A DNA stretch of 64,000 nt from the NCBI RefSeq assembly GCF_044324785.1, contig NZ_CP172127.1; one strand, written 5' to 3'. Within the stretch, counting starts at the first letter, position 1, and every line of letters starts with the position of its first letter. The position numbers and the translations under genes were made by a program. The DNA is from Escherichia coli. Lineage in GTDB: Bacteria > Pseudomonadota > Gammaproteobacteria > Enterobacterales > Enterobacteriaceae. The notes beneath the pieces were generated by a model. It ran no database searches. It was given only the letters and a program-made list of their open reading frames with translations, and was not told the origin of the DNA. Below, one piece after another: positions 8,139 through 40,208 of the stretch.

Positions 8139-10040
8139 ATGAAACTACAGAACTCTTTTCGCGACTATACGGCAGAGTCCGCGCTGTTTGTGCGCCGGGC
8201 GCTGGTCGCCTTTTTGGGGATTTTGCTGCTGACCGGCGTGCTTATCGCCAACCTGTATAATCTGCAAATTGTTCGCTTTACCGATTACCAGACCCGCTCT
8301 AATGAAAACCGCATTAAGCTGGTGCCTATCGCGCCCAGCCGCGGCATTATCTACGACCGTAACGGTATCCCTCTGGCCCTCAACCGCACTATCTACCAGA
8401 TAGAAATGATGCCGGAGAAAGTCGATAACGTGCAGCAAACGCTGGACGCTCTGCGCAGCGTGGTTGATCTGACCGATGACGATATTGCTGCATTCCGAAA
8501 AGAGCGTGCACGCTCACACCGTTTCACCTCCATTCCGGTGAAAACTAACCTGACCGAAGTACAAGTGGCGCGCTTTGCCGTCAATCAGTACCGTTTTCCG
8601 GGTGTCGAAGTTAAAGGCTATAAACGTCGTTACTATCCTTACGGTTCGGCGTTGACCCACGTCATCGGCTATGTGTCGAAAATCAACGATAAAGACGTCG
8701 AACGCCTGAATAATGACGGCAAACTGGCCAACTATGCAGCAACGCATGATATCGGTAAGCTGGGCATTGAGCGTTACTATGAAGATGTGCTGCACGGTCA
8801 GACCGGTTATGAAGAGGTTGAAGTTAACAACCGTGGGCGTGTTATTCGCCAGTTAAAAGAAGTACCACCGCAAGCCGGACACGATATTTACCTGACGCTG
8901 GATCTCAAACTCCAGCAATATATTGAAACGCTGCTGGCGGGTAGCCGCGCAGCGGTGGTAGTCACCGATCCGCGTACAGGTGGGGTGCTGGCGCTGGTTT
9001 CCACGCCTAGTTATGACCCAAACCTGTTTGTTGACGGTATCTCCAGCAAAGATTATTCCGCCTTGCTGAACGACCCGAATACACCGCTGGTGAACCGCGC
9101 CACACAGGGGGTTTATCCTCCCGCGTCTACAGTTAAACCCTATGTGGCGGTTTCGGCATTGAGCGCCGGAGTGATCACGCGCAATACGACGCTGTTTGAC
9201 CCAGGCTGGTGGCAACTGCCAGGTTCGGAAAAACGTTATCGTGACTGGAAAAAATGGGGCCACGGGCGTCTGAATGTCACAAGATCGCTGGAAGAATCTG
9301 CGGATACCTTCTTCTATCAGGTGGCCTACGATATGGGGATCGATCGCCTCTCCGAATGGATGGGTAAATTCGGTTATGGTCATTACACCGGTATCGACCT
9401 GGCGGAAGAACGTTCCGGCAACATGCCTACCCGCGAATGGAAACAGAAACGCTTTAAAAAACCGTGGTATCAGGGTGACACCATTCCGGTTGGTATCGGT
9501 CAGGGTTACTGGACAGCGACCCCAATCCAGATGAGTAAGGCACTGATGATCCTGATTAATGACGGTATCGTGAAGGTTCCGCATTTGCTGATGAGCACCG
9601 CCGAAGACGGCAAACAGGTGCCATGGGTACAGCCGCATGAACCGCCCGTCGGCGATATTCATTCCGGTTACTGGGAGCTGGCGAAAGACGGTATGTACGG
9701 TGTTGCTAACCGCCCTAACGGTACAGCGCATAAATACTTTGCCAGCGCACCGTACAAAATTGCGGCGAAATCTGGTACCGCTCAGGTCTTCGGTCTGAAA
9801 GCGAACGAAACCTATAATGCGCACAAAATTGCCGAGCGTTTACGTGACCACAAACTGATGACTGCCTTTGCGCCATACAACAATCCGCAAGTGGCTGTCG
9901 CCATGATTCTGGAGAACGGTGGCGCGGGTCCAGCGGTTGGTACGCTGATGCGCCAGATCCTCGACCACATTATGCTGGGTGATAACAACACCGATCTGCC
10001 TGCGGAAAATCCAGCGGTTGCCGCAGCGGAGGACCATTAA
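8139..10040 (+). CDS. mrdA: Penicillin-binding protein 2 (elongasome transpeptidase)
   Basis: 633 aa; N-terminal TM segment; transpeptidase motifs STVK and KSGTA. Confidence 0.95.
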
Positions 10041-10042
10041 TC

Positions 10043-11155
10043 ATGACGGATAATCCGAATAAAAAAACATTCTGGGATAAAGTCCATCTCGATCCCACAA
10101 TGCTGCTGATCTTACTGGCATTGCTGGTTTACAGCGCCCTGGTTATCTGGAGCGCCAGCGGTCAGGATATTGGCATGATGGAGCGTAAAATCGGCCAAAT
10201 CGCGATGGGTCTGGTCATCATGGTGGTGATGGCGCAAATTCCTCCACGCGTTTATGAAGGCTGGGCCCCCTATCTCTATATCATCTGTATTATTTTGCTG
10301 GTGGCGGTAGATGCTTTTGGTGCCATCTCTAAAGGCGCTCAACGCTGGCTGGATCTCGGTATCGTTCGTTTTCAGCCGTCGGAAATTGCCAAAATAGCCG
10401 TACCACTGATGGTAGCGCGCTTTATCAACCGCGACGTTTGCCCGCCGTCGTTGAAGAACACAGGCATCGCGCTGGTACTGATATTTATGCCCACGCTGCT
10501 GGTGGCTGCGCAGCCTGACCTGGGGACATCAATCCTCGTTGCGCTTTCCGGTCTGTTTGTACTGTTCCTCTCTGGCCTTAGCTGGCGTCTGATTGGCGTC
10601 GCAGTAGTGCTGGTGGCGGCGTTCATTCCTATTCTGTGGTTCTTCCTGATGCATGATTACCAGCGCCAGCGCGTAATGATGCTCCTGGACCCGGAATCAG
10701 ACCCACTCGGCGCGGGCTATCATATTATTCAGTCTAAAATTGCTATTGGCTCCGGTGGATTACGCGGCAAAGGCTGGCTGCACGGTACTCAGTCACAGCT
10801 TGAATTTCTCCCCGAACGCCATACCGACTTTATCTTCGCGGTACTGGCGGAAGAGCTGGGATTAGTGGGCATTTTGATTCTGCTCGCTCTCTACATTCTG
10901 CTGATCATGCGCGGGCTGTGGATAGCCGCCAGAGCGCAAACCACCTTTGGTCGCGTCATGGCTGGCGGCTTAATGCTGATATTATTCGTTTATGTCTTCG
11001 TAAATATTGGTATGGTAAGCGGTATTCTGCCGGTTGTAGGGGTTCCGCTCCCACTGGTCAGTTATGGAGGATCGGCGCTAATTGTGCTGATGGCTGGGTT
11101 CGGGATTGTAATGTCAATCCACACCCACAGGAAAATGTTGTCGAAAAGCGTGTAA
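10043..11155 (+). CDS. mrdB: Peptidoglycan glycosyltransferase RodA (SEDS family)
   Basis: 370 aa polytopic membrane protein immediately after mrdA. Confidence 0.95.
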
Positions 11156-26792: not shown

Positions 26793-28325
26793 ATGACGCA
26801 GAAAATTGAACAATCTCAACGACAAGAACGGGTAGCGGCCTGGAATCGTCGCGCTGAATGCGATCTTGCCGCTTTCCAGAACTCGCCAAAGCAAACCTAC
26901 CAGGCTGAAAAAGCGCGCGATCGCAAACTGTGCGCCAACCTGGAAGAAGCGATTCGTCGCTCTGGTTTACAGGACGGCATGACTGTTTCCTTCCACCACG
27001 CTTTCCGTGGCGGTGACCTGACCGTCAATATGGTGATGGACGTCATCGCGAAGATGGGCTTTAAAAACCTGACTCTGGCCTCCAGCTCCCTGAGTGATTG
27101 CCATGCGCCGCTGGTAGAACACATTCGCCAGGGCGTGGTTACCCGCATTTATACCTCTGGCCTGCGCGGTCCACTGGCGGAAGAAATCTCCCGTGGTCTG
27201 CTGGCGGAACCGGTGCAAATCCACTCTCACGGCGGACGTGTGCATCTGGTACAGAGCGGCGAACTGGATATCGACGTGGCTTTCCTCGGCGTCCCGTCCT
27301 GTGATGAATTCGGTAATGCCAACGGCTACACCGGTAAAGCCTGCTGCGGCTCCCTCGGCTATGCAATGGTTGATGCCGACAACGCAAAACAGGTTGTGAT
27401 GCTCACTGAAGAACTGCTGCCTTATCCGCATAATCCGGCAAGCATTGAGCAAGATCAGGTTGATCTGATCGTCAAAGTTGATCGCGTTGGCGATGCCGCG
27501 AAAATCGGCGCTGGCGCGACCCGTATGACCACTAACCCGCGCGAACTGCTTATTGCCCGTAGCGCTGCAGATGTGATTGTCAACTCTGGCTACTTCAAAG
27601 AAGGTTTCTCCATGCAAACCGGCACCGGTGGCGCATCGCTGGCGGTAACCCGTTTCCTGGAAGACAAAATGCGTAGCCGCGATATTCGCGCCGACTTCGC
27701 CCTTGGCGGTATTACCGCAACGATGGTTGACCTGCACGAAAAAGGTCTGATCCGCAAACTGCTGGATGTACAGAGCTTTGACAGCCACGCGGCACAATCG
27801 CTGGCCCGTAACCCCAATCACATCGAAATCAGCGCCAACCAGTACGCTAACTGGGGTTCAAAAGGCGCATCGGTTGATCGTCTCGACGTGGTGGTACTGA
27901 GCGCGCTGGAAATTGACACCCAGTTCAACGTTAACGTGCTGACCGGCTCTGACGGCGTACTGCGTGGTGCTTCCGGTGGTCACTGCGATACCGCGATTGC
28001 CTCTGCACTTTCCATCATCGTCGCACCGCTGGTACGCGGTCGTATTCCGACTCTGGTGGATAACGTGCTGACCTGCATCACCCCGGGCTCCAGTGTCGAT
28101 ATTCTGGTCACAGACCACGGTATCGCAGTTAACCCGGCACGTCCGGAACTGGCAGAACGTCTGCAGGAAGCGGGGATCAAGGTGGTTTCTATTGAGTGGC
28201 TGCGTGAACGTGCGCGTCTGCTGACCGGTGAACCACAGCCGATTGAATTCACCGACCGCGTCGTTGCCGTTGTGCGTTACCGCGATGGCTCGGTGATCGA
28301 TGTTGTGCATCAGGTGAAGGAATAA
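26793..28325 (+). CDS. citF: Citrate lyase alpha subunit (citrate CoA-transferase)
   Basis: 510 aa. Confidence 0.95.
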   Translation: MTQKIEQSQRQERVAAWNRRAECDLAAFQNSPKQTYQAEKARDRKLCANLEEAIRRSGLQDGMTVSFHHAFRGGDLTVNMVMDVIAKMGFKNLTLASSSLSDCHAPLVEHIRQGVVTRIYTSGLRGPLAEEISRGLLAEPVQIHSHGGRVHLVQSGELDIDVAFLGVPSCDEFGNANGYTGKACCGSLGYAMVDADNAKQVVMLTEELLPYPHNPASIEQDQVDLIVKVDRVGDAAKIGAGATRMTTNPRELLIARSAADVIVNSGYFKEGFSMQTGTGGASLAVTRFLEDKMRSRDIRADFALGGITATMVDLHEKGLIRKLLDVQSFDSHAAQSLARNPNHIEISANQYANWGSKGASVDRLDVVVLSALEIDTQFNVNVLTGSDGVLRGASGGHCDTAIASALSIIVAPLVRGRIPTLVDNVLTCITPGSSVDILVTDHGIAVNPARPELAERLQEAGIKVVSIEWLRERARLLTGEPQPIEFTDRVVAVVRYRDGSVIDVVHQVKE

Positions 28326-28328
28326 GCC

Positions 28329-29733
<1,405 letters not shown>

Positions 29734-29783
29734 TTATTTAAGCACTTGATAAATTTGGAAATATTAATTTTCGGAGAACTCGT

Positions 29784-31247
29784 ATGTCTTTAGCAAAAGA
29801 TAATATATGGAAACTATTGGCCCCACTGGTGGTGATGGGTGTCATGTTTCTTATCCCTGTCCCCGACGGTATGCCGCCGCAGGCATGGCATTACTTCGCT
29901 GTGTTTGTGGCAATGATTGTCGGCATGATCCTCGAGCCAATTCCGGCAACAGCGATCAGTTTTATTGCGGTTACTATTTGCGTTATTGGCAGTAATTACC
30001 TGCTCTTTGATGCCAAAGAATTAGCTGCCCCAGCGTTTAATGCGCAAAAACAGGCGCTGAAATGGGGCCTGGCTGGTTTTTCCAGCACCACGGTATGGCT
30101 GGTATTTGGCGCATTTATTTTTGCATTAGGGTATGAAGTTTCCGGGTTAGGTCGTCGCATTGCCCTTTTCCTGGTGAAATTCATGGGCAAACGCACGCTG
30201 ACGTTGGGTTATGCGATTGTCATTATCGACATTCTGCTGGCACCGTTTACACCGTCCAACACCGCGCGTACTGGCGGGACCGTTTTTCCGGTCATTAAAA
30301 ACCTGCCGCCGTTGTTTAAATCATTCCCGAACGATCCGTCCGCGCGTCGTATTGGCGGCTATTTGATGTGGATGATGGTCATTAGTACCAGTCTGAGTTC
30401 GTCCATGTTTGTCACCGGTGCGGCACCAAACGTGCTGGGTCTGGAGTTCGTCAGCAAAATTGCCGGTATCCAGATTAGCTGGTTGCAGTGGTTCCTCTGC
30501 TTCCTGCCGGTTGGCGTTATCTTACTTATCATTGCGCCGTGGCTTTCCTACGTGCTTTACAAACCGGAAATCACACACAGTGAAGAAGTAGCAACCTGGG
30601 CGGGTGATGAACTAAAAACCATGGGTGCGCTGACACGCAGAGAGTGGACGCTGATTGGCCTTGTATTGCTCAGCTTAGGTTTGTGGGTATTTGGCAGTGA
30701 AGTCATTAATGCTACTGCGGTAGGTCTGCTGGCAGTTTCACTAATGCTGGCCCTGCACGTTGTGCCGTGGAAAGACATTACCCGCTATAACAGCGCATGG
30801 AACACGCTGGTCAACCTGGCAACTCTGGTTGTGATGGCTAACGGCCTGACTCGTTCTGGTTTTATTGACTGGTTCGCCGGTACCATGAGTACGCACCTGG
30901 AAGGATTCTCACCAAACGCAACGGTGATTGTACTGGTTCTGGTGTTCTACTTTGCACACTACCTGTTTGCCAGCCTGTCTGCGCACACCGCAACCATGCT
31001 GCCGGTTATTCTGGCCGTCGGTAAAGGTATTCCGGGCGTACCAATGGAACAACTGTGTATCCTGCTGGTGCTGTCTATCGGTATCATGGGCTGTCTGACG
31101 CCGTATGCAACCGGTCCTGGGGTGATTATTTACGGCTGTGGCTATGTGAAATCAAAAGATTACTGGCGTCTTGGCGCAATCTTCGGGGTGATTTACATCT
31201 CTATGTTGCTGTTGGTTGGCTGGCCGATTCTCGCCATGTGGAACTAA
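29784..31247 (+). CDS. citT: Citrate:succinate antiporter (DASS family)
   Basis: 487 aa polytopic transporter at the end of the citrate lyase operon. Confidence 0.94.
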   Translation: MSLAKDNIWKLLAPLVVMGVMFLIPVPDGMPPQAWHYFAVFVAMIVGMILEPIPATAISFIAVTICVIGSNYLLFDAKELAAPAFNAQKQALKWGLAGFSSTTVWLVFGAFIFALGYEVSGLGRRIALFLVKFMGKRTLTLGYAIVIIDILLAPFTPSNTARTGGTVFPVIKNLPPLFKSFPNDPSARRIGGYLMWMMVISTSLSSSMFVTGAAPNVLGLEFVSKIAGIQISWLQWFLCFLPVGVILLIIAPWLSYVLYKPEITHSEEVATWAGDELKTMGALTRREWTLIGLVLLSLGLWVFGSEVINATAVGLLAVSLMLALHVVPWKDITRYNSAWNTLVNLATLVVMANGLTRSGFIDWFAGTMSTHLEGFSPNATVIVLVLVFYFAHYLFASLSAHTATMLPVILAVGKGIPGVPMEQLCILLVLSIGIMGCLTPYATGPGVIIYGCGYVKSKDYWRLGAIFGVIYISMLLLVGWPILAMWN

Positions 31248-32396: not shown

Positions 32397-32807
32397 ATGT
32401 CCAGACCAACTATCATCATTAACGACCTGGATGCCGAACGCATCGATATTCTGCTGGAGCAACCCGCCTATGCTGGTTTGCCAATCGCCGACGCGTTAAA
32501 CGCAGAGTTGGATCGCGCCCAAATGTGTTCGCCAGAACAGATGCCACACGACGTGGTGACAATGAACAGCCGGGTTAAATTCCGCAATCTTAGCGATGGC
32601 GAAGTGCGTGTGCGCACGCTGGTGTATCCGGCAAAAATGACCGATAGCAATACTCAGCTTTCCGTTATGGCTCCGGTAGGTGCCGCACTGCTGGGACTGC
32701 GCGTTGGCGATTCCATTCACTGGGAACTTCCGGGCGGCGTTGCAACCCACCTTGAAGTGCTGGAACTCGAATACCAGCCAGAAGCTGCTGGCGACTACCT
32801 GCTTTAA
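32397..32807 (+). CDS. rnk: Regulator of nucleoside diphosphate kinase Rnk (GreA/GreB-like)
   Basis: 136 aa; GGAG-type ribosome-binding site upstream. Confidence 0.92.
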
Positions 32808-32840
32808 TCCCATCTGCACAAGCGATAACTCGCTTTGCCC

Positions 32841-32866
32841 AGAGGATGCACTCGCATCCTCTTTCC
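32841..32866 (+). terminator. Hairpin terminator after rnk
   Basis: AGAGGATGC-actc-GCATCCTCT followed by a T-rich tail. Confidence 0.55.
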
Positions 32867-32949
32867 GCTCAAATATCAACCAGATTTATCATTTTGCTCT
32901 TAAGCGCAGCATTCTAATCTGAACTGGTTATTCATCTGCGGAACCTCAT

Positions 32950-33039
32950 ATGAGCGAAGCTCTCGGTATCACTGCATTTTATATATTCATAGCCGCAATT
33001 ATTGTTGCTGCAGTGCTATACCTTGAACAACGCTGGTAG
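32950..33039 (+). CDS. Hypothetical 29-aa single-TM small protein (MSEALGITAFYIFIAAIIVAAVLYLEQRW)
   Basis: Read by hand; below the ORF-track length cutoff; ATG to TAG; strongly hydrophobic core; weak ribosome-binding site. Confidence 0.25.
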   Translation: MSEALGITAFYIFIAAIIVAAVLYLEQRW

Positions 33040-33162
33040 CGCCTGGTTTTATTTATTTTCCAGCTCAATAGCAAATTCAGATCAAATCAGCCTCGCAAAT
33101 CATAGATTCATAACCAATAATGTGCTGTTATGTATACATGCAAAAACAAGGAGAGAATGCTT

Positions 33163-33591
33163 ATGTACAAAACAATCATCATGCCAGTGGATGTTTTCGA
33201 AATGGAATTGAGCGACAAAGCGGTTCGCCACGCTGAATTCCTCGCCCAGGATGACGGAGTTATTCATCTACTTCACGTACTACCGGGGTCAGCCAGCCTG
33301 AGCCTGCACCGTTTTGCCGCTGATGTGCGTCGTTTTGAAGAGCATCTGCAACATGAAGCAGAAGAACGTCTGCAAACGATGGTCAGCCACTTCACCATCG
33401 ATCCTTCCCGCATTAAGCAACATGTCCGTTTTGGTAGTGTGCGGGATGAAGTTAACGAGTTAGCGAAAGAACTTGATGCAGATGTAGTAGTGATTGGTTC
33501 GCGTAACCCATCAATTTCAACTCATCTGTTGGGTTCTAACGCCTCGAGCGTAATCCGCCACGCCAATTTGCCGGTGCTGGTTGTGCGTTAA
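33163..33591 (+). CDS. uspG: Universal stress protein UspG
   Basis: ORF track 33130..33591 trimmed to [10 protein letters not shown] (142 aa); AAGGAGA ribosome-binding site 8 nt upstream. Confidence 0.93.
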
Positions 33592-37129: not shown

Positions 37130-37336
37130 AAGATAATTCATGGATGGTTGAAATATATCCCTATTTTTCAACCATCCTAAAAAAGCATGAATTGCTCGCT
37201 CTGCCCTAAGTGGCTGTGCTATTTTAGAAAAACTTAATTCTGAATTAAGCAAAAAAACATAATACAAATAAATACAACAGCAACATTATTGATCAAGTGA
37301 ATGATTTATAGAAGAGATAATATAACGGAGTATGTT

Positions 37337-38239
37337 ATGGCGAATCTTTATGACCTAAAAAAATTTGATCTGAATTTACTGGTCATATTTGAGTGTATTT
37401 ATCAACATCTCAGCATTAGTAAAGCGGCAGAATCATTATATATAACGCCCTCTGCTGTTAGTCAGTCGTTACAACGTTTACGTGCGCAATTTAATGACCC
37501 GTTATTCATTCGCTCAGGGAAAGGTATCGCGCCGACTACGACAGGGTTAAATCTGCATCATCATCTTGAGAAAAATCTCAGAGGCATTGAACAAACGATC
37601 AATATTGTTAATAAGTCTGAGCTAAAGAAAAATTTTATTATCTACGGTCCTCAGCTTATTTCTTGTACTAATAACAACATGCTAATCCGCTGTCTTAGAC
37701 AAGATACTTCAATCGATATAGAATGCCATGACATACTGCTTTCAGCTGAAAATGCCGAAGAACTGTTGGTTCAACGCAAAACTGACCTGGCAATTACACT
37801 ACAACCAGTAATTAGCCGCTCTGTCATCTGCATGCCGTTACATACTATTCGCAATTCTCTTATATGTAGCAACAAACATCCTCGTATTACCGATACCAGT
37901 AACTATGAACAAATTATCGCCGAAGAATTCACCTTGTTGATATCTAAATCAGCAGGGATTGACGAAATTCAAATGGACATAGATGAACGTTTTATGAACC
38001 GTAAAGTTTCATTTCGCAGTTCTTCTTTGTTGACGATAATTAATAGTATTTCTGTTACTGACTTATTGGGCATTGTGCCCACCGAACTGTACGATTTACA
38101 TCGTGATTTTTTGAAGTTACAAGAGATAAAACTGGAACGACCACTTCCTGCGGTTAAACTTTATATTTCCTATAACAAGGCTTCGTTGAACAACCTTGTC
38201 TTCTCACGATTCATAGATCGTTTAAATGATAGCTTCTGA
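37337..38239 (+). CDS. ybdO: LysR-family transcriptional regulator YbdO
   Basis: ORF track 37301..38239 trimmed to MANLYDLKKFD (300 aa); HTH; AT-rich, low-GC coding sequence. Confidence 0.88.
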   Translation: MANLYDLKKFDLNLLVIFECIYQHLSISKAAESLYITPSAVSQSLQRLRAQFNDPLFIRSGKGIAPTTTGLNLHHHLEKNLRGIEQTINIVNKSELKKNFIIYGPQLISCTNNNMLIRCLRQDTSIDIECHDILLSAENAEELLVQRKTDLAITLQPVISRSVICMPLHTIRNSLICSNKHPRITDTSNYEQIIAEEFTLLISKSAGIDEIQMDIDERFMNRKVSFRSSSLLTIINSISVTDLLGIVPTELYDLHRDFLKLQEIKLERPLPAVKLYISYNKASLNNLVFSRFIDRLNDSF

Positions 38240-38385
38240 TTTATTACCACGGATAAATGTTATATTACGCATCAATTGATTCATTGTGTGAATATAAAAT
38301 AATGTGCTCTATCTTGCTTCGTTTACCCTATAATTAGCGGATTCATCTCACGAGTCGCCCCGTAACGTTCAGAGAGCGTTTTCAG

Positions 38386-39606
38386 ATGTCTATTTATAAA
38401 ATCCCGCTTCCACTGAATATTCTGGAAGCTGCAAAAGAACGTATTACCTGGACACTTAACACCCTACCCCGCGTCTGCGTTTCTTTTTCGGGTGGTAAAG
38501 ATTCCGGATTAATGCTGCATCTGACCGCCGAACTTGCCCGACAAATGGGCAAAAAAATTTGTGTTTTATTTATCGACTGGGAAGCTCAGTTCTCTTGCAC
38601 CATTAACTATGTTCAGTCCCTGCGCGAGTTGTACACCGATGTCATCGAAGAGTTTTACTGGGTTGCGCTCCCGCTTACAACGCAAAATTCCCTATCACAA
38701 TACCAACCCGAATGGCAGTGCTGGGAACCTGATGTCGAATGGGTACGTCAGCCCCCGCAAGATGCGATAACCGATCCTGACTTTTTCTCCTTTTACCAGC
38801 CTGGCATGACCTTCGAACAATTTGTGCGTGAGTTTGCCGAATGGTTTTCGCAAAAACGTCCGGCGGCGATGATGATCGGCATCCGTGCGGATGAGTCCTA
38901 CAACCGTTTTGTCGCCATCGCCAGTTTAAATAAACAACGTTTTGCCGATGATAAGCCCTGGACTACTGCCGCACCAGGCGGTCATAGCTGGTACATTTAC
39001 CCCATCTACGACTGGAAAGTCGCTGATATCTGGACCTGGTATGCTAACAATCAACAGCTCTGTAACCCACTGTATAATATAATGTATCAGGCAGGCGTCC
39101 CTCTGCGCCATATGCGAATTTGCGAACCTTTTGGCCCGGAGCAACGACAAGGATTATGGCTCTATCACGTTATCGAACCGGATCGCTGGGCTGCTATGTG
39201 CGCACGAGTCAGCGGGGTAAAAAGTGGCGGCATTTACGCCGGACATGACAACCATTTTTATGGTCATCGGAAAATCCTCAAGCCCGAACATTTAGACTGG
39301 CAGGAGTATGCATTATTGCTACTCAACAGCATGCCGGAGAAAACAGCTGAGCATTATCGCAATAAAATCGCCATTTATTTGCACTGGTATCAGAAAAAAG
39401 GCATCGAGGTTCCACAAACCCAGCAAGGGGACATTGGCGCGAAAGATATCCCCTCCTGGCGGCGAATATGCAAAGTTTTACTCAATAACGATTACTGGTG
39501 TCGGGCATTATCATTTAGCCCGACCAAAGCGAAGAACTATCAGCGTTATAACGAACGAATAAAAGGAAAACGTCAGGAATGGGGGATACTATGCAACAAC
39601 GATTAA
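38386..39606 (+). CDS. ybdN: PAPS-reductase-like PP-loop ATP pyrophosphatase fused to a DUF3440-type C-terminal domain (IbrA-like)
   Basis: 406 aa; PP-loop motif SFSGGKDS near the N-terminus. Confidence 0.9.
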   Translation: MSIYKIPLPLNILEAAKERITWTLNTLPRVCVSFSGGKDSGLMLHLTAELARQMGKKICVLFIDWEAQFSCTINYVQSLRELYTDVIEEFYWVALPLTTQNSLSQYQPEWQCWEPDVEWVRQPPQDAITDPDFFSFYQPGMTFEQFVREFAEWFSQKRPAAMMIGIRADESYNRFVAIASLNKQRFADDKPWTTAAPGGHSWYIYPIYDWKVADIWTWYANNQQLCNPLYNIMYQAGVPLRHMRICEPFGPEQRQGLWLYHVIEPDRWAAMCARVSGVKSGGIYAGHDNHFYGHRKILKPEHLDWQEYALLLLNSMPEKTAEHYRNKIAIYLHWYQKKGIEVPQTQQGDIGAKDIPSWRRICKVLLNNDYWCRALSFSPTKAKNYQRYNERIKGKRQEWGILCNND

Positions 39607-40208
39607 CGCAGGATTTAACCCAATTTCTCGCCAGCTTGCCGGAAGACGATCGCATCAAAGCGATTAATGAAATCCGCATGGCGATCCATAAGGTCAGTCC
39701 TTTTCGTGAAGAGCCGGTGGATTGTGTTTTGTGGGTGAAAAATAGCCAGCTCGTGCCGAATGATTACAATCCCAATAATGTGGCACCACCAGAGAAGAAA
39801 CTGCTGCAAAAATCCATTGAAATAGATGGCTTTACGCAACCCATTGTGGTCACGCATACAGATAAAAATGCCCTGGAAATTGTTGATGGTTTTCACCGCC
39901 ATGAAATAGGTAAAGGCTTATCATCGTTAAAATTACGCTTAAAAGGTTATTTGCCAGTAACCTGTCTGGAAGGTACACGTAATCAACGCATCGCCGCGAC
40001 TATTCGTCATAACCGCGCCCGTGGTCGCCATCAAATCACTGCCATGTCCGAAATTGTTCGTGAACTCAGCCAGTTGGGATGGGACGATCATAAAATCGGC
40101 AAAGAGCTGGGAATGGACAGCGACGAGGTGCTGCGCTTGAAACAAATTAACGGCCTGCAAGAACTGTTTGCCGACCGTCAATATTCCCGCGCCTGGACGG
40201 TTAAATAA
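39579..40208 (+). CDS. ybdM: ParB/sulfiredoxin-like nuclease-domain protein (IbrB-like)
   Basis: 209 aa; 28-nt overlap with ybdN suggests translational coupling. Confidence 0.88.
   Translation: MGDTMQQRLTQDLTQFLASLPEDDRIKAINEIRMAIHKVSPFREEPVDCVLWVKNSQLVPNDYNPNNVAPPEKKLLQKSIEIDGFTQPIVVTHTDKNALEIVDGFHRHEIGKGLSSLKLRLKGYLPVTCLEGTRNQRIAATIRHNRARGRHQITAMSEIVRELSQLGWDDHKIGKELGMDSDEVLRLKQINGLQELFADRQYSRAWTVK

Follow-up and report, generated by a model that had tools for sequence, protein, structure and literature searches.

The adjacent genes ybdN and ybdM, two of the Escherichia coli K-12 genes that still have no known function, encode an obligate two-protein module. In the core genome of E. coli it probably represents a horizontally mobile family, that of IbrA/IbrB, and it is kept silent there by the repressor CitR together with H-NS. 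The reading that in our view best explains the folds, motifs, regulation, obligate pairing, distribution and purifying selection observed here is that of a DNA-directed, cysteine-independent adenylating pair that alters the expression or protection of DNA, to which we assign a probability of about 35%. YbdM, a ParB/KorB-like protein with a nucleotide-binding ParB/sulfiredoxin (Srx) domain and an HTH, would bind DNA and place YbdN there, while YbdN, a PP-loop enzyme of the CysD/FAD-synthase/PAPS-reductase clade, would use ATP to adenylate an oxygen, either on the DNA or on something bound to it. The product would be a covalent, non-sulfur mark that alters the expression or recognition of the marked DNA, and the pair would then represent an orphan type of DNA-modification module rather than restriction-type defence. 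The physical complex, the DNA substrate and the chemistry are the parts of this reading that we infer. A bolder version, in which the pair installs an undescribed cysteine-independent ATP-adenylation mark on DNA that activates silenced acquired genes or shields mobile DNA, with carriers among gut bacteria of many phyla, about 225 phage records and enterobacterial virulence plasmids, and with a dormant K-12 copy that could be woken by deletion of citR, strikes us as rather doubtful.

Organisation, regulation and conservation of the E. coli locus

The locus lies in a 64,000-nucleotide stretch of E. coli DNA (contig NZ_CP172127.1, assembly GCF_044324785.1), referred to here as the window, in which the neighbours of ybdNM are citR and ybdL. 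Its features are as follows.

37130..37336, + strand: dsbG-citR spacer, the very AT-rich citR promoter region (GC 29.5%)
37337-38239, + strand: citR (ybdO), LysR-type repressor of ybdNM; intact
38240..38385, + strand: citR-ybdN spacer, with a promoter-like site at 38276-38303 (GC 37.0%)
38386-39606, + strand: ybdN, 406 aa, intact; PP-loop ATP pyrophosphatase plus helical DUF3440 domain
38482..38505, + strand: PP-loop motif SFSGGKDS, YbdN residues 33-40, from the translation
39094..39534, + strand: DUF3440 C-terminal helical domain of YbdN, residues 237-383
39579..39606, + strand: ybdN/ybdM overlap of 28 nt (16 nt with the ybdM start at 39591)
39579-40208, + strand: ybdM, 209 aa, intact; predicted ParB/sulfiredoxin-fold N-domain plus KorB/ParB-type HTH
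39885..39899, + strand: DGFHR motif, YbdM residues 103-107, aligned with the ParB GERR box
40005..40031, + strand: RHNRARGRH motif, YbdM residues 143-151; family-specific, invariant

The LysR gene that the initial annotation had noted upstream of ybdN ends 146 nt before it and is the published, already characterised repressor CitR (PMC9068703), an H-NS target. YbdO matches the NCBIfam CitR equivalog NF047710 at 452.1 bits (cut-off 400) over residues 1-294 of 300; its reading frame is open from 37301, the annotated K-12 start being the methionine at 37337. Deletion of citR raises ybdN by 5.5 log2 and ybdM by 2.5 log2, and ChIP-exo places a CitR peak upstream of citR (PMC9068703), while the ybdO promoter is bound and repressed by H-NS (PMC9141747, PMC4720273). 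The promoter-like site in the citR-ybdN spacer, which is 70-78% identical to K-12, reads TTGATT-16-AATAAT (9/12 matches); the scan as a whole was at chance level, with promoter and terminator sites no more numerous than in shuffled sequence.

The 28-nt overlap between ybdN and ybdM is real. An alternative in-frame ATG of ybdM at 39591 has a better Shine-Dalgarno sequence (GGGGGA, with the 4-nt spacer TACT), and the two genes overlap whichever start is used. The description of the module as AT-rich held in part: citR (GC 37.2%) and both spacers are AT-rich, and ybdN (47.4%) and ybdM (46.5%) are AT-richer than ybdL (54.5%) and the window (51.8%), but these two genes are no AT-richer than dsbG (46.7%).

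Since the region was found in 5420 of 5426 complete E. coli genomes, and since dN/dS against K-12 is 0.03 for citR, 0.03 for ybdN and 0.02 for ybdM, these are conserved genes rather than chance ORFs, and the function of ybdNM has been maintained. Purifying selection on all three is strong (dN/dS about 0.03), and dS for citR is 2.16. Alleles at the locus are deeply diverged.

YbdN as a putative adenylating enzyme

YbdN had been described from its sequence as a PP-loop protein with a large C-terminal extension, and both parts of this description were borne out. The SFSGGKDS loop includes the SGGxDS motif of the PP-loop ATP pyrophosphatase/PAPS-reductase-like superfamily; Pfam PAPS_reduct covers residues 30-234 (2.8e-13), and the extension matches DUF3440 at residues 237-344 and 352-383. 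Fold comparisons revealed an adenine-nucleotide alpha-hydrolase fold like that of CysH, CysD and FMNAT, the nearest folds and sequence matches being CysD, FAD synthase (adenylyl-transferring) and the APS/PAPS reductases. Among 60 homologues the loop residues G37, K38 and S40 never vary, and conservation of S35, G36 and D39 is 90% or higher; D64, E66, S171 and D214 are invariant as well. The best matches are to CysD and the eukaryotic-type FAD synthase, and the intact SGGKDS PP-loop that all three have in common suggests transfer of AMP from ATP. Unlike CysD, YbdN has no CysN GTPase partner, and it differs from both enzymes in its 170-residue helical domain and its obligate ParB-like partner; its scores lie far below the family cut-offs (for CysD, 25 bits against 195).

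RefSeq names the ybdN product phosphoadenosine phosphosulfate reductase (CysH), databases call YbdN a 'PAPS reductase', and virome studies class such genes as sulfur 'auxiliary metabolic genes'. CysH proper carries a conserved C-terminal catalytic cysteine (ECGLH-type). As the YbdN family alignment contains no conserved Cys column, this cysteine is absent, and YbdN falls below the cut-offs of the CysH equivalogs (NF002537, 32.9 versus 154 bits; TIGR02057, 33.1 versus 254). Without this cysteine, and with a ParB-like protein as its obligate partner, the YbdN family is wrongly labelled 'PAPS reductase'. The best cysteine column has Cys in 85% of homologues but Ala in YbdN itself, and the remaining columns reach at most 51%, without co-conservation. 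An Fe-S or zinc site built from these partly conserved cysteines was considered and rejected, the patterns in 74 sequences not being co-conserved.

YbdM as a predicted ParB/KorB-like DNA-binding protein

In the case of YbdM, family-profile and model matches bear out the ParB/sulfiredoxin fold proposed for it initially; solved-structure searches with a single YbdN or YbdM were unproductive, and the matches came from family profiles. The N-terminal domain has the ParB/Srx alpha+beta fold, and the portion of the model that corresponds to YbdM has matches to KorB, Spo0J and PadC as well as to the HTH DNA-binding domains of KorB and ParB, so that the predicted architecture is a ParB/sulfiredoxin N-domain followed by a KorB-type HTH. 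Within DGFHR, which aligns to the GERR of Noc and ParB, D103, G104 and R107 are invariant, and R107, opposite the last R of GERR, provides the arginine of the GxxR/GERR position. Also invariant, in 62 sequences from many phyla, are R143, H144, N145, R146, A147, R148, G149 and H151, while the YbdM family has no conserved cysteine. YbdM differs from the CTP-switched clamps KorB, ParB and Noc in having DGFHR in place of GERR and an additional invariant motif, RHNRARGxH. In contrast to those clamps, its loci have no ParA or KorA neighbour: no ParA-type family of the kind that adjoins ParB in a canonical ParABS system was found among the neighbours of 70 loci or in the window.

DGFHR also resembles DGQHR, the motif of DndB. 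PADLOC, with whatever DndB models it includes, gave no DndB match for YbdM at E<=0.1. YbdM does match the ParB part of methyltransferases (phrog_498, 2.4e-10; PADLOC MTase_II, weakly, 4e-4). The ParB-domain DNA methyltransferases of phages and plasmids, which are orphan modification enzymes, join a ParB N-domain to a DNA-modifying activity, as the pair would; they occupy the same position beside the terminase in phage genomes and likewise have no restriction partner; their activity is a SAM methyltransferase, whereas YbdN is an ATP pyrophosphatase and a separate polypeptide.

An obligate and mobile pair

In 79 of 80 loci, drawn from many phyla, genes of the YbdN and YbdM families are direct neighbours, and in the lone exception the sequence stops at the stop codon; the pair is an obligate module. 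These loci, which came from a scan of genome contigs, span Enterobacterales, Bacteroidota, Clostridia, Verrucomicrobiota, Listeria, Helicobacter and one Heimdallarchaeote, and in most of them the two genes are spaced by -28 to +15 nt. Phage records tell the same story, with a YbdN relative in 224 and a YbdM relative in 226 (about 225 each) and equal counts in 9 of the 10 listed organism groups; Streptococcus thermophilus and Flavobacterium phages are among the carriers. A YbdN relative is present in 855 plasmid records, the plasmid copies being about 58% identical to YbdN, and 39% of E. coli genomes hold an accessory YbdN/YbdM copy located on an island, some genomes having several. Adjacency to iron-uptake loci is also seen, and may be no greater than the make-up of pathogenicity islands would lead one to expect. 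The YbdN family comprises about 1,700 clusters at 50% identity, and the paired families extend to Bacteroidota, Clostridia, Akkermansia, Listeria, an Asgard archaeon and phages, and to virulence plasmids of Klebsiella, Salmonella and E. coli. Natural fusions were also sought: the five longest YbdN-family representatives, read by eye, had no evident ParB part, the additional length being apparently some other sequence or an artefact. An artificial fusion of YbdN, a 30-residue linker and YbdM was modelled with a pLDDT of 75 and a pTM of 0.54 from 19 paired sequences; at that pTM it gives no more than a hint that strands may form at the N-terminus of YbdN and at the C-terminus of YbdM.

Directly upstream of the pair, on the same strand, 18 loci carry a gene for an SNF2 helicase (dsDNA translocase), a minimal core of about 420 aa with partial DpdE and generic helicase-domain matches, and in phages the pair adjoins DNA methyltransferases and terminase. 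Together with the KorB/ParB HTH matches, these neighbours link the pair to DNA. In this it resembles the Dpd system of 7-deazaguanine DNA modification, which likewise combines a ParB-like ATPase (DpdB) with an SNF2-like helicase (DpdE), but YbdN/YbdM loci lack both the transglycosylase DpdA and DpdC. A nucleic-acid role, as the initial annotation had suggested, is thus plausible, because of the KorB-type HTH, the SNF2 neighbour and the phage and plasmid distribution, whereas the Dnd/Ssp and defence-island context invoked alongside it did not hold up. A 140-aa protein encoded upstream in Bacteroidota loci matches none of the Pfam, PHROGs or PADLOC families; a hint of a GNAT identity (E 0.19) was dropped.

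Kinship with the prophage proteins IbrA and IbrB, proposed at the outset, is probable, going by RefSeq names: ybdM, like the accessory copies, is named 'IbrB-like domain-containing protein', and a 74%-identical YbdN relative is an 'IbrA family prophage gene co-activator'. The ECOR-9 IbrAB island, whose products co-activate the eib genes of prophages, shares with ybdNM both families, their order and the gene overlap, but ybdNM differs from it as a near-universal chromosomal locus with a LysR repressor of its own. In the account of Sandt 2002 given in PMC7649339, the IbrAB paralogues affect gene expression, and activation of eib-type prophage genes requires both of them. A search of the literature on ybdN, ybdM, IbrA/IbrB, DUF3440 and PAPS reductase with ParB found no biochemical characterisation.

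Alternative readings

The main rival is IbrAB-like transcriptional co-activation, with the pair as a co-activator or anti-silencer that carries out no DNA chemistry. YbdM would be an NTP-switched clamp like KorB and VirB that opens H-NS-silenced, horizontally acquired promoters, and YbdN would act on a protein or make a nucleotide ligand for YbdM. We rate this as somewhat less probable than our main reading. It leaves unexplained why an ATP pyrophosphatase should be obligate and so highly conserved across phyla, and why an SNF2 partner should be present; moreover, most non-enteric chromosomal copies sit amid housekeeping genes with no obvious silenced target, and there is no known YbdNM target in K-12. 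DNA modification by the pair, if true, would be a new chemical type and a mechanism for the 2002 IbrAB observation. A ParB-type anti-silencer whose co-factor is an enzyme would be new too, as a way of regulating virulence islands. Since the repressor is known, both outcomes are accessible to standard K-12 genetics.

A pair directed at small molecules or proteins is unlikely. Here YbdN would adenylate an oxyanion or metabolite, like CysD and FAD synthase, and YbdM would phosphorylate or use a nucleotide, like sulfiredoxin, SerK and SbnI, to yield an activated nucleotide-linked compound or signal, perhaps in sulfur or iron physiology. However, YbdM has retained a KorB/ParB-type HTH, the SNF2 neighbour and the lytic-phage copies beside methyltransferases and terminases point to DNA, and no conserved metabolic partner gene recurs. 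The induction of the cys regulon and of flagellar genes that follows deletion of citR (PMC9068703) may be independent of ybdNM.

Less probable still is anti-phage or anti-plasmid defence, or counter-defence by phages and plasmids, in which self and invader would be told apart by modification or by an NTP-dependent ParB-like activity. Dnd, Ssp, BREX type 4, Dpd and GmrSD do contain ParB-superfamily and PAPS-reductase-like proteins (PMC10853773, PMC12839542), a 2026 preprint lists untested clusters of NAP and PAPS-reductase (with or without ParBc) as PANGU-like defences (10.64898/2026.04.06.716658), and the module is mobile, multi-copy in some genomes and deeply divergent in its alleles at the locus. 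Yet an association with defence islands, the check proposed initially, was not seen. The two genes on either side of 70 non-enteric loci were ordinary, unrelated housekeeping genes rather than defence or phage genes. No Pfam family, and no nuclease or other effector, recurred among them, and domains of the restriction, methylase, integrase or defence type were not enriched. Comparison with the known defence systems of PADLOC-DB v2 returned weak partial matches to DndC, BrxP and the ParB part of MTase_II, and no system match. Furthermore, the E. coli core copy is near-universal and silent rather than variable, and its low dN/dS is not a diversifying pattern.

By analogy with TilS, TtcA, ThiI and MnmA, the two proteins might instead form a tRNA or rRNA modification pair. 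This is very improbable, as the partners of YbdN, a ParB/KorB-type protein and an SNF2 dsDNA translocase, are of a DNA type, Pfam detected no RNA-binding domain (THUMP, PUA or TilS C-terminal domain) in YbdN, and for YbdN the PAPS-reductase clade outscores tRNA enzymes.

The analogy with Dnd/Ssp-like phosphorothioation, in which YbdN would correspond to DndC/SspD and YbdM to DndB, had been drawn by the initial annotation and is, by sequence, largely refuted; we leave it only a very slight chance. The architecture is similar: in DndC/DndB, SspD/SspB and BrxP-DUF4007 a PAPS-reductase-like PP-loop enzyme (DndC, SspD or BrxP) is coupled to a protein that binds DNA (PMC10853773, PMC12839542), and in Dnd this partner belongs, like YbdM, to the ParB superfamily. 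YbdN also matches DndC and BrxP, but at 22.5 bits (4.6e-5) against a cut-off of 290.4 for DndC TIGR03183, at 22 bits over a partial stretch (1.5e-5) for PADLOC DndC and at 18.4 bits (1.2e-4) for PADLOC BrxP, with no PADLOC match to SspD at E<=0.1. In contrast to these systems, YbdN has no conserved cysteine or cysteine cluster for an Fe-S centre or persulfide, the YbdM family has none either, and the C-terminal domain of YbdN is DUF3440 rather than one of their extensions. Nor did a cysteine desulfurase, DndD/E, SspB/C or a restriction partner recur in the flanks of the 70 loci, which were also without DUF4007/SspB or SspC/BrxC neighbours.

Finally, a toxin-antitoxin role, derived by TASmania guilt-by-association for Listeria lmo1309/lmo1310 (PMC7020466), is not favoured, because both proteins are conserved and enzyme-like and overexpression of YbdM lowers growth by just 10% (PMC8764527).

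The citR-ybdN-ybdM locus is intact and held under purifying selection

The window carries three genes between dsbG on one side and the convergent ybdL on the other, in the order annotated in K-12:

37337-38239, + strand, citR/ybdO, LysR-type repressor, intact, 300 aa
38386-39606, + strand, ybdN, PP-loop/PAPS-reductase-like enzyme, intact, 406 aa
39579-40208, + strand, ybdM, ParB-like partner, intact, 209 aa

The initial annotation of this stretch (37337-40208) was correct, in that the genes are real and their reading frames intact, as was the 28-nt overlap of ybdN and ybdM at the annotated ybdM start (39579). This start has a poor Shine-Dalgarno sequence, and an in-frame ATG at 39591 (Met5, kept in close relatives) has a better one (GGGGGA, with TACT as a 4-nt spacer); judged from sequence, the real overlap may be 16 nt, from 39591, rather than 28 nt. 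The proposed AT-richness of the module holds for citR (37.2% GC) and the flanking spacers (29.5% and 37.0%), but not for ybdN (47.4%) and ybdM (46.5%), which are close to dsbG (46.7%).

Compared with K-12, dS was 0.27 for ybdN and 0.43 for ybdM, against 0.016-0.15 for flanking genes, with dN/dS of 0.03 and 0.02, respectively. For citR, 20% of nucleotides differ and dS is saturated (2.16), with dN/dS of 0.03. Because dN/dS is so low (0.02-0.03), we conclude that the module is kept by purifying selection and is not decaying. The ybdONM region of the window is only 80-90% identical in 3541 of 5420 E. coli genomes, and the regulator looks like a set of very old allele classes held under purifying selection, in agreement with a report that H-NS-bound ybdO is diverse in sequence (PMC4720273).

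Further upstream, rnk (32397-32807) and uspG (33130-33591) are separated by only ~320 nt (32808-33129), where K-12 has yldA and the alcohol-dehydrogenase gene ybdR; this indel accounts for the seemingly low identity upstream of 33050 in a sliding comparison. The entH/entA genes lie ~5 kb from the core ybdNM pair.

CitR represses ybdN and ybdM

YbdO scored 452 bits against the curated NCBIfam CitR equivalog, passing its cut-off of 400. Genes that we take, from their translations, to be citF, citX and citG (citrate lyase) and citT (citrate/succinate antiporter) occupy 26793-31247, 6-10 kb upstream of citR, in keeping with the published connection of CitR to the expression of cit genes.

A CitR ChIP-exo peak lies upstream of citR, and citR deletion raises ybdN 45-fold and ybdM 6-fold (PMC9068703), so that removal of a known repressor can turn on ybdNM in E. 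coli. Together with ybdNM, the same deletion induces the entire cysteine/sulfate-assimilation regulon (with cysD, N, C, J, I, A, W and U up by 1.8-2.8 log2) and the flagellar regulon (PMC9068703 Table 1). YbdN, with its CysD/CysH fold, might be the cause of this signature of sulfur starvation. In addition, the ybdO promoter is bound and repressed by H-NS (PMC9141747, PMC4720273). YbdM protein was 29-fold up in MG1655 carrying the Klebsiella multiresistance plasmid pUUH239.2, and its overexpression cost 10% in growth (PMC8764527). Since many large Klebsiella plasmids encode a related pair, with a YbdN-like gene ~58% identical to YbdN, part of that signal may come from peptides that YbdM has in common with a homologue on the plasmid. 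Our literature search found no biochemical activity for YbdN or YbdM.

ybdN and ybdM form an obligate, mobile pair

A search of all 1.84 billion cluster representatives (E <= 1e-3) returned 1,676 YbdN relatives. We compared 80 loci, taken as one genome per species and leaning to gut metagenome-assembled genomes, from Enterobacterales, Bacteroidota, Clostridia, Opitutales, Akkermansia, Helicobacter, Listeria, gut Alphaproteobacteria and a Heimdallarchaeote. A YbdM-family gene adjoins the YbdN-family gene in 79 of them, nearly always directly downstream (gap -28 to +15 nt); the 80th locus breaks off at the stop codon. In a phage collection, 224 records held a YbdN relative and 226 a YbdM relative, with equal counts for all but one of the ten organism groups listed, and 855 plasmid records held a YbdN relative, mostly ~58% identical. 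The pair is thus an obligate, mobile module that is both widespread and strongly conserved.

Of 5,426 complete E. coli genomes, 5,420 carry the ybdNM locus itself and 2,130 a related accessory pair, the latter at up to four places per genome. More distant Enterobacterales copies occupy different sites (beside phoQ, gss or kup, or on a conjugative element), which fits repeated horizontal insertion. The putative kinship of ybdNM with the prophage-associated IbrA/IbrB pair is drawn from database names and the 58%-identical accessory copies, rather than from the original IbrA/IbrB sequences. Two very short entries catalogued under Salmonella and Escherichia phages, OR851112.1 (2818 bp) and OR845499.1 (2297 bp), contain unannotated ybdN or ybdM at ~78-82% identity and look like fragments of bacterial chromosomes, not phage genomes.

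The folds are borne out, the sulfur-modification analogy is not

Profile and model matches bear out the structural assignments made initially, a PP-loop YbdN and a ParB/Srx-fold YbdM. YbdN has SFSGGKDS at residues 33-40; its family shows almost no variation in the PP-loop and none at D64, E66, W119, S171, D214 and Y230. YbdM alone matched Pfam ParB_N weakly (3e-4), and its family profile (62 sequences) matched Noc (1.4e-6), ParB and Spo0J, with DGFHR aligned to the GERR box. From these matches, and those of the YbdM part of an AlphaFold model of a fused YbdN-YbdM chain (pTM 0.54), YbdM is predicted to have an N-terminal ParB/Srx domain and, behind it, an HTH of the ParB/KorB type. Members from outside Escherichia and Citrobacter are all 41-63% identical to YbdM, and the family is unusually constrained for this breadth, with 32 invariant columns that include N61, N64-P65-N66, D103-G104 and R107, as well as a family-specific motif, R143-H-N-R-A-R-G149-x-H151.

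The proposed analogy with Dnd/Ssp sulfur modification, by contrast, fails these sequence tests. Neither family alignment contains a conserved cysteine: the commonest Cys column of the YbdN family has Ala in YbdN itself, and no other column holds Cys in more than 51% of sequences, these cysteines occurring in non-matching combinations. A PADLOC scan gave weak partial matches only (DndC, BrxP and the ParB part of a methyltransferase). On this evidence, none of the known sulfur chemistries (the CysH thiol, the Fe-S centres of DndC, TtuA and BrxP, and persulfide relays) can be the family mechanism. As the PP-loop is intact and YbdN lies near CysD and FAD synthase, the favoured reaction is a transfer of AMP from ATP onto an oxygen nucleophile. 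What is left standing is a widespread, strongly conserved, mobile PP-loop and ParB-like module, resembling the known pairing of PAPS-reductase-like enzymes with DNA-binding partners.

Neighbouring genes

In 18 loci, including Listeria, Opitutales, Clostridia, gut Alphaproteobacteria and Chitinophaga, an SNF2-family helicase core (~420 aa; phrog_62, with Pfam SNF2-rel_dom in 17) sits immediately upstream in the same orientation. In 13 Bacteroidota loci (including L037, 9569-9994, and L074, 9580-10002, in locus coordinates), a ~140-aa protein with invariant G16, V34, N40, P42, T45, W51, F63 and F127 takes the place directly upstream of the YbdN homologue; it matched nothing in Pfam, PHROGs or PADLOC. 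The Chitinophaga locus (L074) has both, in the order SNF2, ~140-aa protein, YbdN, YbdM. Beyond these partners, a Pfam scan of two genes on each side in 70 non-enteric loci found no family in more than five of ~230 proteins, the neighbours being ordinary metabolic, transport and signalling genes. This neighbourhood survey, of the kind proposed initially, gave no support to a defence-island or prophage setting for chromosomal copies. In phages of Arthrobacter, Mycobacterium and Bacillus, the pair sits beside DNA methyltransferases, just upstream of terminase, and in Streptococcus and Lactobacillus phages between lysis genes and early regulator genes.

A proposed mechanism and its rivals

The locus combines a repressed operon, an ATP-pyrophosphatase-type enzyme and a ParB/KorB-type partner with an HTH, strictly co-inherited and carried by phages and plasmids. 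We suggest that YbdN and YbdM would act together as a complex on DNA, with YbdM binding DNA, perhaps as a nucleotide-switched clamp, and delivering YbdN, which would adenylate a DNA-associated oxygen to leave a non-sulfur covalent change; the SNF2 translocase, where present, might give access to the duplex or movement along it. Since no restriction-type partner accompanies the pair and IbrAB reportedly affects gene expression, an orphan mark that modifies expression or protects is the most economical reading, to which we give a probability of about 35%.

The strongest rival, possible if on balance unlikely, sees in the pair an anti-silencer of the KorB/VirB kind, in which the enzyme has a protein as its target or a ligand as its product. 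It draws on the eib data, IbrA and IbrB being described in papers citing Sandt 2002 as co-activators of prophage eib genes, on the PerC-family neighbour and virulence-island settings of accessory pairs, and on the position upstream of terminase in phages. A small-molecule role is improbable, even with the nearest enzymes to YbdN acting on sulfate, APS and FMN, the existence of ParB-fold kinases (SbnI, SerK, sulfiredoxin) and the induction of the cys regulon on citR deletion (PMC9068703). Less likely than these three readings are a defence system, which is doubtful, RNA modification, which is very unlikely, and phosphorothioation, the least probable of all.

Accessory pairs beside iron-uptake loci

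Iron-uptake loci adjoin the accessory IbrAB-like pairs in all four contexts examined: iutA/iuc (L090, pair at 8992-10856), iroBCDN (L091, 8989-10850), a TonB-dependent receptor (L094, 8999-10851) and iucABCD with a PerC-family regulator (L095, 8936-10791). This adjacency may reflect a functional link, or else chance in the mosaic make-up of such islands. IS elements flank the pair in each of the four.
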